Of a stretch of 64,000 bases of DNA, positions 15,001 to 18,000 are shown in pieces. Within the stretch, counting starts at the first letter, position 1. Each line of letters starts with the position of its first letter. A program made the position numbers. Source of the stretch: Peptococcaceae bacterium UBA7702 (GTDB taxonomy: Bacteria; Bacillota; Dehalobacteriia; UBA7702); assembly GCA_002482535.1 (NCBI GenBank), contig DLGE01000005.1, positions 74,530 to 138,529 of the forward strand, given 5' to 3'.

Positions 15001-18000
15001 GCAATGATGGATCCGAATAGCTATGGGCTCATATGATCATTCTCCCATTTGATAACCGATACCGAAAACGGTTCGAATATACTCGTTTTGATCGTCGCCG
15101 CGCAGTTTTTTGCGCAGGCGATTGATGTTGACGGCCAGGGTGTTTTCATCGACGAATTTGCCCTCATTGTCCCAGACGCTTTGCAATAATTGATTCTTTG
15201 TCAAAACATGACCGATATTTGCCATGAAGCACGTCAAAAGCCGGTATTCCGTTATGGTCAAATCAAGGGGATCGCCATTGCGGCAGACCTTTATTTCTCC
15301 CGGATCCCAGGTCAATGCCTGATAGCGGACAATGTCTTGCTTGCTTTCGCTTAACGAGCGAATGCGGAGAATATTGGAGATCCTGGTTTTTAAGATTGAT
15401 AGAGAAAAGGGCTTGGTCAGATAATCGTCGGCACCGCTTTCCAAACCGATGATTTCATCGGTTTCCATGTCTCTGGCCGTCAGCATCAGGATCGGCAGTT
15501 GGGAGGTTTTCCGCAGCTCTCTGCAAAAATCAAGACCGTCACCGTCGGGAAGGTTTAAATCTAAGATCATCAGTTCAAGAGACTGTTTTTTTAAGATTTC
15601 TGTGGCTTCTCGCAGGCACCCTGCGGAAAATACGTGATACTTTTCTTTCAGAGCATAACTGACGCCGCGATTTAGGTTGGCATCGTCTTCCACAATTAAA
15701 ATCGAATATGGTTTGTTCATATCTTTCTCCTGTCGGCGAATCCGTTTAAAATATAACCATTTTTATTATTCCATAAAATTCTCAATTTTGCATTAAAATG
15801 GCGCAATTTTTTAAAAATCCGCGCAAAAATTTTTCCCGGACGCCGTATTGACAACGTGGTTCGTTTATGCTAACCTTTAATTAGTTAGAAGGATCTAACT
15901 ATTTTTTCAAACACTTGGTTAGCGAGAGCTAACTTACGGTATAGCGTATAAAGGGGGAATGATGATGCCTTTGACAATGGCTTCGATGGGAAAAGAAAAT
16001 CTGATCAAAAGAATTGGCGGCAAAGAGGAAACAAAGCGTTACCTGGAGAGTCTTGGTTTTACCGTGGGCGGCGCCGTGACCGTGGTGAACGCAATCGGCG
16101 GCAATATGATTGTGAACGTAAAAAATTCCCGCATTGCGATTGGCCGGGAAATGGCCAACCGAATCATGGTTTGAGTTCTCGAAAGGAGTGAGCGATATGA
16201 CATTGAAAGAAGCCAAATGCGGCGAAACCGTTACGGTCATAAAAATCAACGGTGTCGGCGCGATAAAACGCAGAATTATGGATATGGGTATCACCAAAGG
16301 TACGCCCGTCTTCGTTCGGCGCGTGGCCCCCTTGGGTGATCCCGTGGAAGTGACCGTTCGCGGCTATGAATTATCCCTGCGCAAAGCTGATGCGGAAATG
16401 ATTGCCGTAGAGTAGGCGGCGCGGCGGCTTCCGCGCCGCCATTTTGGAAGCGCGTGGTTAGTGATAGCTAACTTGGGTTTCTGCACCAATGATTTGAAAG
16501 ATCGAATGGAGGAAAAGCATATGTCGATAAAAATAGCCCTTGCCGGGAATCCCAACAGCGGGAAAACAACGCTTTTTAACGCGTTGACCGGCGCCAATCA
16601 GTTCGTGGGGAACTGGCCGGGGGTTACGGTAGAAAAAAAGGAAGGAAGACTGAAAGGCCAAAAAGACGTTATTATCATGGACTTACCAGGGATCTATTCC
16701 CTGTCTCCCTATACCCTGGAAGAAGTTGTGGCCAGAAATTATCTGATCCAGGAGCGCCCCGACGCGATTTTGAATATCGTTGACGGCACCAATTTGGAAC
16801 GCAATCTCTACCTCACAACCCAGCTTTTGGAATTGGGAATTCCCACGGTGGTGGCCATCAATATGATGGATGTTGTGGCCAAAAGCGGCGATACCATCAA
16901 CACCCATCGCCTCTCGGAAGAACTGGGCTGCCCTGTGCTGGAAATCTCCGCGCTGAAAGGCACCGGTCTCACGGCGGCCTCTCAGAAAGCCGTGGAATTG
17001 GCCAAAGCAGGGGTTCCCATGGTCCCCCGGCACAGTTTTTCCGGTAGCGTGGAACATGCCATTGCCCACATTGAGGAAGCCCTCGGCAACAAAGTGGAGG
17101 AAATGCAACAGCGCTGGTTTGCCATTAAAGTTTTCGAGCGCGATGAGAAGGTTTTGGCACAGCTTGCTCTCGATGATGGCACAAAAGCCCGCATCGAAAA
17201 GGAGATTGGCCTTTGCGAAAGGGAGCAGGACGATGATGCCGAAAGCATCATCACCAACGAACGCTATATCTATATTGCCTCTATTATGAAGGATTGCTGC
17301 AAGAAACAGAACGCCGGCAAACTTACGGTTTCCGATAAAATCGACCGCATCGTCACCAACCGTTGGCTGGCCTTGCCGATCTTTGCGGTGGTGATGTTCG
17401 TTGTCTATTACGTTTCCGTCACGACGGTAGGTACCTGGGTTACTGACTGGACCAACGACGTGCTCTTTGGCGAAGTCATCCCCCCGGCCATAGATCAATT
17501 TCTTACTGCCGTCAACGCCGCTCCCTGGCTTTCGGCGCTGATCCTCGACGGCATCATTGCCGGTGTCGGCGCTGTTCTCGGTTTTGTTCCCCAGATGTTC
17601 GTACTCTTTGCTTTCCTGGCCTTTCTTGAGAGCTGCGGCTATATGGCCCGGGTGGCCTTTATCATGGACCGTATTTTCCGTAAATTCGGTCTTTCCGGGA
17701 AATCCTTTATCCCGATGCTCATCGGTACCGGTTGCGGCGTCCCCGCGGTGATGGCCTCCCGTACCATCGAAAACGACCGGGACCGCAAAATGACGATTAT
17801 GACCACGACCTTTATTCCCTGCGGCGCCAAACTGCCGATCATCGCTTTGATTGCCGGCGCTCTTTTCCACGGCGCCTGGTGGGTGGCGCCCAGCGCCTAT
17901 TTCTTAGGGATTGCCGCGGTTGTCTGCTCCGGTATCATCCTGAAAAAAACCAGGATGTTTACGGGAGATCCCGCTCCCTTTGTGATGGAATTGCCGGCTT

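Follow-up and report, generated by a model that had tools for sequence, protein, structure and literature searches.

What are the palindromes for that surround the feo genes of Peptococcaceae bacterium UBA7702? The stretch of DNA considered here, which is referred to as the window, comprises 64,000 nucleotides (nt; 64 kilobases, kb) of contig DLGE01000005.1 and carries a feoA-feoA-feoB unit that is preceded and interrupted by copies of the palindrome GTTAG-N6-CTAAC. Feo is the main ferrous-iron importer of anaerobes. We consider it highly likely that the copies, which are called O1 to O4, are operators of a metal-loaded (likely Fe2+) repressor that would control feoA-feoA-feoB and that would belong to a two-domain group of the DtxR/MntR family, named feo-type below.

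Palindromic Sites in the feo Region

The search pattern was GTTAG-N6-CTAAC, taken either exactly or with one mismatch allowed. The window has it exactly three times (15884-15899, 15918-15933 and 16457-16472), each time at feo. The number expected from dinucleotide shuffles is 0.04, and none of 100 shuffles gave three. The shorter pattern TTAG-N6-CTAA, which is the core geometry of a single-dimer DtxR site, also has three matches in the window, only at feo. The fourth copy, O1, has one mismatch. The features of the region are as follows.

15848..15853, forward strand: -35 hexamer TTGACA of the feoA promoter, read from the sequence; in relatives it is fixed 1-5 nt before the first operator
15859..15874, no strand: O1, GTTCGTTTATGCTAAC, one mismatch; it fills the promoter spacer and overlaps the -10, and it is identical in the closest relative, L001
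15871..15876, forward strand: predicted -10 hexamer TAACCT, provided by the right arm of O1, 17 nt past the -35
15884..15899, no strand: O2, GTTAGAAGGATCTAAC, exact match, at the predicted transcription start, 25 base pairs (bp) after O1
15902..15907, forward strand: T-run TTTTTT, 2 nt after O2, ending 10 nt before O3
15918..15933, no strand: O3, GTTAGCGAGAGCTAAC, exact match, in the 5' leader, 34 bp after O2
15959..16174, forward strand: feoA1 (Pfam FeoA, E = 1.3e-16)
16197..16415, forward strand: feoA2 (Pfam FeoA, E = 2.3e-22)
16415..16440, forward strand: GC-rich hairpin GGCGGCGCGG-CGGCTT-CCGCGCCGCC, from RNA folding, directly after the feoA2 stop codon
16442..16445, forward strand: T-run TTTT, ending 11 nt before O4
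16457..16472, no strand: O4, the internal operator GTTAGTGATAGCTAAC, exact match, 39 nt before the feoB start codon
16512..18677, forward strand: feoB (Pfam FeoB_N, Gate, FeoB_Cyto and FeoB_C)
18693..18896, forward strand: FeoB-associated Cys-rich membrane protein, the last gene of the unit (Pfam PF12669, E = 2.1e-12)

The original prediction, which was made from this DNA alone, had already pointed to the palindromes, and the sequences that it named are present where it placed them; its gene calls (feoA, feoA, feoB, an OmpR-type and a DtxR-family gene) agree with Pfam. Two details need to be amended. The near-identical 20-mers at 15916-15935 and 16455-16474 share 18 rather than 17 of 20 positions. 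The GCTAACC at 15869, which had been listed as an additional half-site, is the right arm of the full site O1.

Conservation in Related feo Loci

The relatives used for comparison are 80 feoB loci (L001-L080; 731 kb in total), one genome per species, which were collected with the FeoB protein as the query. They are mostly from Lachnospiraceae, Oscillospiraceae, Eubacteriales and Peptococcaceae (Clostridia), and their FeoB proteins are 63-91% identical to that of the window; counts out of 81 include the window itself. The 80 related loci contain 122 exact copies of the motif. When one mismatch is allowed, the 800 bp ahead of feoB (62 kb summed) contain 185 sites and the other 669 kb contain 28, i.e., 2.97 versus 0.042 sites per kb. 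This is a 71-fold enrichment upstream of feoB. At least one site is present in 72 of the 81 loci; feoA1 is preceded by one to four sites in 65 of them, and feoB has one immediately ahead of it in 53. The copy ahead of feoB, to which the original prediction had drawn attention, is conserved and looks functional. The symmetrised consensus of the sites is R-GTTAG-Y-N4-R-CTAAC-Y.

The most informative single comparison is with L001, whose FeoB is 91% identical to that of the window. Of the intergenic region, 181 of 238 bp can be aligned between the two, with an identity of 82%; within the sites, all 40 arm positions agree, as against 16 of the 24 positions of the N6 spacers. Since the arms are invariant and the spacers are free to change, selection acts on the arms, and the motif is, judging by this alignment, under selection.

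The sites also have a preferred arrangement. Centre-to-centre spacings of 25 bp and 34 bp are favored in the relatives (12 cases each), and both are present in the window. The aligned upstream regions have a promoter design in common in which TTGACA precedes the first site by 1-5 nt and the -10 either is formed from the right arm or abuts it, e.g., TTGACA-N5-GTTAG...C-TAACCT (or TAACAT) and TTGACA-N1-site-TATAAT. In other words, the place of the -10 is occupied by TAACCT or TAACAT, or by CTAAC with TATAAT directly after it. The position equivalent to O1 has an exact GTTAG-N6-CTAAC in L002, L027, L043 and others.

A Regulator Family Linked to the Sites

A tblastn search with the DtxR-like protein of the window revealed that a gene for a two-domain DtxR/MntR-family protein of about 120 amino acids (aa) divergently adjoins feoA1 in 32 of the 80 related loci, which is a lower bound, because many contigs end early. 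The divergent gene and feoA1 share the intergenic region that holds the sites. The encoded feo-type proteins form a coherent group with a mean column identity of 59% and with the conserved blocks ESAE(N/M/D)YLE, SKPSVS, YERH and EDAC(R/K)IEH. They have a DNA-binding domain and a dimerisation/metal domain and lack an SH3-like one. Among solved structures, those of MntR, IdeR and DtxR are nearest (E = 1e-12 or weaker). The proteins score 65-89 bits against NCBIfam MntR equivalog cut-offs of 138 and 153 and are also far under the NCBIfam DtxR cut-off. This is a very large family: clustering at 90% identity gives at least 7,995 clusters, of which many come from gut Lachnospiraceae, Eubacterium and Ruminococcus, and its annotation is only generic (metal-dependent transcriptional regulator).

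Six residues, E8, E12, H78, C100, E103 and H104, are invariant in the 17 aligned members at positions equivalent to those of MntR and DtxR, in a numbering that rests on DtxR and MntR sequences. The feo-type proteins have potential ligands at all six positions of the MntR binuclear metal site. All 17 aligned members have a Cys at the position of MntR Glu99 (DtxR C102), and Asn, Met or Asp is found at the position of MntR Asp8 (DtxR M10). According to a review, the DtxR C102 and M10 positions determine the response to Fe2+ versus Mn2+ (PMC11672702). Given the residues of the metal site and the nature of the target gene, Fe2+-dependent repression appears to be the most likely function of the feo-type family.

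Presumably, one dimer of the two-domain repressor would bind each GTTAG-N6-CTAAC palindrome. Metal-loaded dimers at O1, between the -35 and the -10, and at O2, at the transcription start, would exclude RNA polymerase from the feoA promoter, and dimers on O3 in the leader and on O4 before feoB would be second checkpoints for polymerases that had escaped. When iron is scarce, the repressor would leave the DNA and feoA-feoA-feoB would be transcribed. We infer the metal, the direction of control (repression) and the working of O3 and O4.

Several points weigh against this interpretation. Public annotations label the feo-type family as Mn-dependent, and the Fe2+ specificity suggested here comes from a few residues and the target gene. 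The -10 of the window, TAACCT, is weak and was missed by a simple promoter scan. A literature search found no binding or expression data for any feo-type member and no study that characterises the operator or regulon of the family. Finally, there is no feo-type regulator gene in the window, and neither such a gene nor any further site in the 10 kb that were fetched past each of its edges. Because the arms are perfectly conserved relative to L001, a cognate regulator must exist, and the gene for it probably lies elsewhere in the genome, beyond the 64 kb of the window.

Other Explanations for the Sites

The window does contain one DtxR-family gene, and the original prediction had named it as a candidate for the regulator.

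45746-46198, reverse strand: DtxR-family gene, upstream of a DUF1847 gene

We regard binding of its product to O1-O4 as improbable, even though it is the only DtxR-family gene in the window; no other DtxR homologues were found there or in the 10 kb past either edge. The protein aligns with the feo-type group (E ~1e-20) and retains Cys, Glu and His at the C102, E105 and H106 positions. However, its identity to the feo-adjacent group is only about 35%, the figure for Bacillus subtilis MntR being about 30%, and two of the six metal-ligand positions are not kept, with Lys in place of E12 and Tyr in place of H78. A metagenome scan with this protein gave two loci, and among the homologues from a protein search, the gene contexts of three that are 61-66% identical were read (in Caproicibacter fermentans, a Peptococcaceae metagenome-assembled genome and one other assembly). 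Their genes adjoin genes for Fer4 (ferredoxin), DUF5320, Nitro_FeMo-Co, CbiA/ParA and DUF134 proteins and never feo. The homologue loci are without a GTTAG-N6-CTAAC site, save for one hybrid with one mismatch in L085 that is not at the regulator promoter, and there is no such site near the gene in the window either. Instead, all of the homologue loci carry a palindrome like TTATGGGCATATGCCCATAA at the promoter; it lies upstream of the genes homologous to 45746-46198 in L081, L083, L084 and L085. The window has its own copy with one mismatch, TTATTGGCATATGCCCATAA, at 46325-46344, and this copy is the only one in the window. This second operator has a geometry that the feo sites share (a 6-nt arm ending in GC, N4 and the mirrored arm) and a related half-site, ATGGGC versus GTTAGC, which speaks for the candidate. 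On balance, the different palindrome, the contexts free of feo and the low identity indicate that 45746-46198 probably belongs to a paralogous subfamily with a palindrome of its own and is not the feo regulator. The two DtxR paralogues appear, from their sites, to have equal site geometry and different half-sites. They coexist in this group of organisms, and recognising this corrects a likely mis-assignment.

The hybrid in L085, a locus that encodes a paralogue of the window type, is TTGTTAGCATATGCTAATAA at 9741-9756 and precedes an ARMT1-like gene. Its sequence stands between those of the feo-type and the window-type operators.

One could also imagine that the palindromes are RNA hairpins of the feo transcript (attenuators, stabilisers or targets of RNA-binding proteins) and not DNA operators at all, which we consider highly improbable. 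O2, O3 and O4 are transcribed and could fold as hairpins, and the O2 palindrome, with the U-run that follows it, resembles a weak terminator when read as RNA. The positions that flank the stem also pair slightly more often than expected, 0.69 (expected 0.55) and 0.53 (expected 0.44), a pattern that fits lineage-specific half-site preferences rather than a helix, and about 31% of the sites are unpaired at the first flanking position. However, O1 is upstream of the transcript, between the -35 and the -10, and an untranscribed site has no way to act as RNA. Covariation is absent from the stem bases, which do not vary across the sites, and the sites are genetically linked to the gene for a DNA-binding regulator. 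Finally, a scan with the Rfam covariance models found no family that reaches its gathering score; the best is RF02971, with 26.2 bits versus the 60.8 needed.

This sub-threshold match to RF02971, the emrB-Lactobacillus RNA, is at 15870-15935 on the reverse strand (E = 0.15) and covers O1-O3. It probably reflects the tandem palindromes, and it raises the question of whether the RF02971 motif could itself be a protein-binding DNA array.

Fur control of feo was rejected, because no Fur box (7-1-7 consensus TGATAATNATTATCA, at most three mismatches) occurs between 2786 and 36128, and thus none is near feo; the six matches in the whole window are near the chance value of three. OmpR, ArsR and Rrf2 proteins were rejected as binders of the sites. 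The OmpR-type protein is part of a response regulator/kinase/ABC (ATP-binding cassette)/FtsX module, and the neighbors of the ArsR-family gene (9367-9732) encode FmdE and FecCD-type ABC proteins; in the relatives, linkage to feo is seen for neither of the two. The earlier suggestion of OmpR, ArsR or Rrf2 proteins as regulators found no comparative support.

The Internal Site and Its T-run

The internal site, represented by O4 in the window, lies at a distance of 5 to 74 nt from the start of feoB as given by the protein match, and in about 20 loci the Shine-Dalgarno sequence begins about 3 nt after it. The side upstream of the site is under far tighter constraint. A property of these sites is a run of at least four Ts on one side. 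The counts for the three classes of site are as follows.

Internal sites: T-run ending 7-11 nt upstream in 46 of 53; mirror A-run downstream in 4 of 53
Later upstream sites: T-run ending 7-11 nt upstream in 15 of 62; mirror A-run downstream in 0 of 62
First (promoter) sites: T-run ending 7-11 nt upstream in 1 of 65; mirror A-run downstream in 3 of 65

The T-run is oriented with transcription, always being on the transcription-upstream side, and so it is not a contact made by a symmetric dimer. The hairpin next to the T-run of O4 in the window has a best energy of -22.4 kcal/mol versus -9.6 for shuffles. In 20 of 46 loci, a hairpin of -5 kcal/mol or better adjoins the T-run after feoA2, more than in shuffled controls (Wilcoxon p = 0.001). 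Another 19 of the 46 have none at all, and what is conserved is therefore the T-run. The same counts led to the rejection of a universal intrinsic terminator ahead of O4.

Our tentative proposal, which we hold to be possible and no better than that, is that the T-run and the operator together form a repressor-gated terminator that would uncouple feoB from feoA and the leader from the operon. In this module, the T-run ends 8-10 nt upstream of the operator. A repressor bound to the operator would halt RNA polymerase during elongation, its active site then lying over the U-tract, and the stall would make a weak or hairpin-less terminator efficient only when iron is plentiful. In experiments with EcoRI Q111, a polymerase halted by a DNA-bound protein reportedly stops with the RNA 3' end about 14 bp before the obstacle; this end would lie within -15 to -11, where the Ts are conserved. 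With or without a hairpin, release would be favored by the weak rU:dA hybrid at the stall, and a hairpin or the previous palindrome often comes before the T-run. Roadblock-assisted termination is the explanation that we would prefer for both O4 and O3. If the fixed spacing between T-run and operator does reflect such termination, it would be a simple and testable regulatory device, a protein- and DNA-based form of attenuation distinct from riboswitches, RNA-binding attenuators and plain roadblocks.

On a quite different view, O4 would serve a promoter that feoB has to itself inside the operon, on the plan of O1, with a -35 TTGnnn at the end of the T-run, the operator in the spacer and a -10 TAACnn from the right arm; O4 would then be no obstacle to an elongating polymerase. 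We rate this as a possibility on the same tentative level. The internal sites have G or A at -8 in 52 of 53 cases and T at -11 and -12, and the result is TTGA-like hexamers 4-6 nt before the sites, as at O1; for example, L001 has TTGAAA-N18-TAACTA, and L064 has a perfect TATAAT after the site. A new promoter would also be useful in the about 20 of 46 loci with a terminator hairpin after feoA2. Against this, if transcription began about 7 nt past such a -10, the Shine-Dalgarno sequence would be missing from the mRNA in about 20 loci. The sixth base of the -10 is T in just 17 of 53 internal sites, the spacer in the window would be 19 nt, and a -35 would not need a T-run as long and as well conserved as this one. 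The oriented T-run is left unaccounted for if O4 represses through DNA looping with O1-O3, about 540 bp away. Upstream and internal sites do occur together in 46 loci, 490-752 bp apart, which speaks for looping. However, these distances have no helical phasing (Rayleigh p = 0.83 and 0.31) and a tetramerisation domain is not evident in the two-domain regulator, and so we think looping quite unlikely.

Neighboring Genes

The genes on either side of the feo unit include the following.

15037-15720, reverse strand: OmpR-type response regulator (Pfam), divergent from feo
9367-9732, reverse strand: ArsR-family regulator, beside FmdE and FecCD-type ABC genes
19141-19935, forward strand: ZIP-family metal transporter gene, after a 244-bp gap behind the feo unit
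19985-20845, forward strand: BacA undecaprenyl-diphosphatase gene, just past the feo and ZIP genes

No operator-like site with at most one mismatch was found at the ZIP transporter gene. The OmpR-type regulator is part of a Bce-like module (10538-15720, reverse strand) that also has a histidine kinase, an ABC ATPase and an 883-aa FtsX permease. This module occupies the slot where the relatives hold the feo-type regulator gene, and the gene arrangement suggests that the latter gene was displaced in the lineage of the window.

A putative second metal-uptake unit lies close to feo, at 5600-10320 on the reverse strand. It consists of the ArsR-family regulator, two FmdE-like proteins that carry DksA/TraR zinc fingers, and a FecCD-type ABC importer made up of a permease, an ATPase and a periplasmic binding protein. 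The cluster contains no GTTAG-N6-CTAAC site; a match with one mismatch, at 5499-5514, sits beyond its 3' end.

Sites at Other Genes

Away from feo, exact sites in the related loci are found directly upstream of genes for DUF3793 (six loci), DUF2325 (five loci) and one AhpC protein.

DUF3793: L009 1364, L037 6532, L047 8120, L056 2114, L061 3190, L064 3136
DUF2325: L026 6590, L032 2166, L041 9119, L047 8446, L054 6403
AhpC (peroxiredoxin): L022 488

The window has none of these genes. The sites suggest that the DUF3793, DUF2325 and AhpC genes are in the same metal regulon in Clostridia, and the DUF3793 and DUF2325 genes are candidate members that are probably controlled by iron. The consensus R-GTTAG-Y-N4-R-CTAAC-Y offers a direct way to predict iron regulons in Clostridia.

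A literature search, which did not cover curated regulon databases, turned up no paper on this operator, on DtxR-family control of feoAB in Clostridia or on a repressor-coupled terminator. In Clostridium beijerinckii, a transcript annotated as ideR goes down while those of feoA and feoB go up (PMC11497831).

Comparison with Known Systems

The original prediction took the palindromes to be either a variant metalloregulator operator, with arms spaced unlike those of DtxR, or the site of a different dimeric regulator. A dimeric metalloregulator of the DtxR family is supported by the sites and by their linkage to regulator genes in the relatives. The variant spacing is not supported, because arms 6 nt apart are no departure from DtxR: they equal the single-dimer IdeR site TTAGG-N4-CCTAA, which can also be written TTAG-N6-CTAA (PMC8464063). 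The well-known 19-bp DtxR/IdeR box consists of two overlapping single-dimer sites of this kind, and in the IdeR-DNA structures each subunit is on one of four CCTAA repeats, the dimers taking repeats 1 and 3 and repeats 2 and 4. Consequently, the minimal IdeR target has been redefined as the 14-bp TTAGGNNNNCCTAA, bound by one dimer (PMC8464063).

The feo sites resemble this minimal target as it occurs in Saccharopolyspora erythraea (PMC8464063) in having TTAG and CTAA cores 6 nt apart and, presumably, one dimer per site. The promoters are those of iron genes in both cases (O1 and O2 are at the promoter of a metal-uptake gene), one winged helix-turn-helix monomer would be on each arm, and the regulators are from the same family. 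A DtxR-family gene is linked to the sites in 32 of the 80 related loci; the only such gene in the window is the paralogue with the different palindrome. The differences are that the feo sites have no overlapping second dimer site and are flanked as R-GTTAG-Y rather than TTAGG. The four pentamer repeats of the 19-bp box TTAGGTTAGSCTAACCTAA are absent, since positions -4 to -1 and 17 to 20 are without conservation of TTAG or CTAA. The sites are arrayed 25 and 34 bp apart, versus a 5-bp overlap in the 19-bp box, and one of them is inside the operon. The feo-type proteins also differ from IdeR in being without the SH3-like third domain and in having Val, Tyr or Arg at the position of the base-contacting Gln43.

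TroR of Haloferax volcanii, whose motif TTTAGGC-NNN-CCTAAA occurs in tandem about 30 bp apart (PMC10783522), is similar in its TTAG-N6-CTAA geometry, in its tandem sites and in the iron-dependent repression of uptake genes by a DtxR-family protein, which for the feo sites is the predicted function. TroR differs in being archaeal, with another promoter logic, and in being supported by chromatin immunoprecipitation sequencing and reporter data; the evidence for the feo sites is comparative. B. subtilis MntR has two domains, as the feo-type proteins do, a similar size (about 120-140 aa) and six metal positions with potential ligands. The feo-type proteins differ from it in the invariant Cys in place of Glu99, in having Asn, Met or Asp in place of Asp8, in falling below the NCBIfam MntR cut-offs and in their target, which is an iron importer and not a manganese importer.

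Roadblock repression by DNA-bound repressors is familiar from CodY, CcpA and LacI. As in those systems, O4 is an operator downstream of the promoter and inside the unit, placed where it could stop an elongating polymerase. The difference is that the internal operator of feo is coupled to an upstream T-run at a fixed distance of 8-10 nt, often with a hairpin, and we know of no description of such an arrangement.

In conclusion, single-dimer operators of the DtxR family are of a known kind, and what is new is an array of such operators for an uncharacterised and very common two-domain subfamily.

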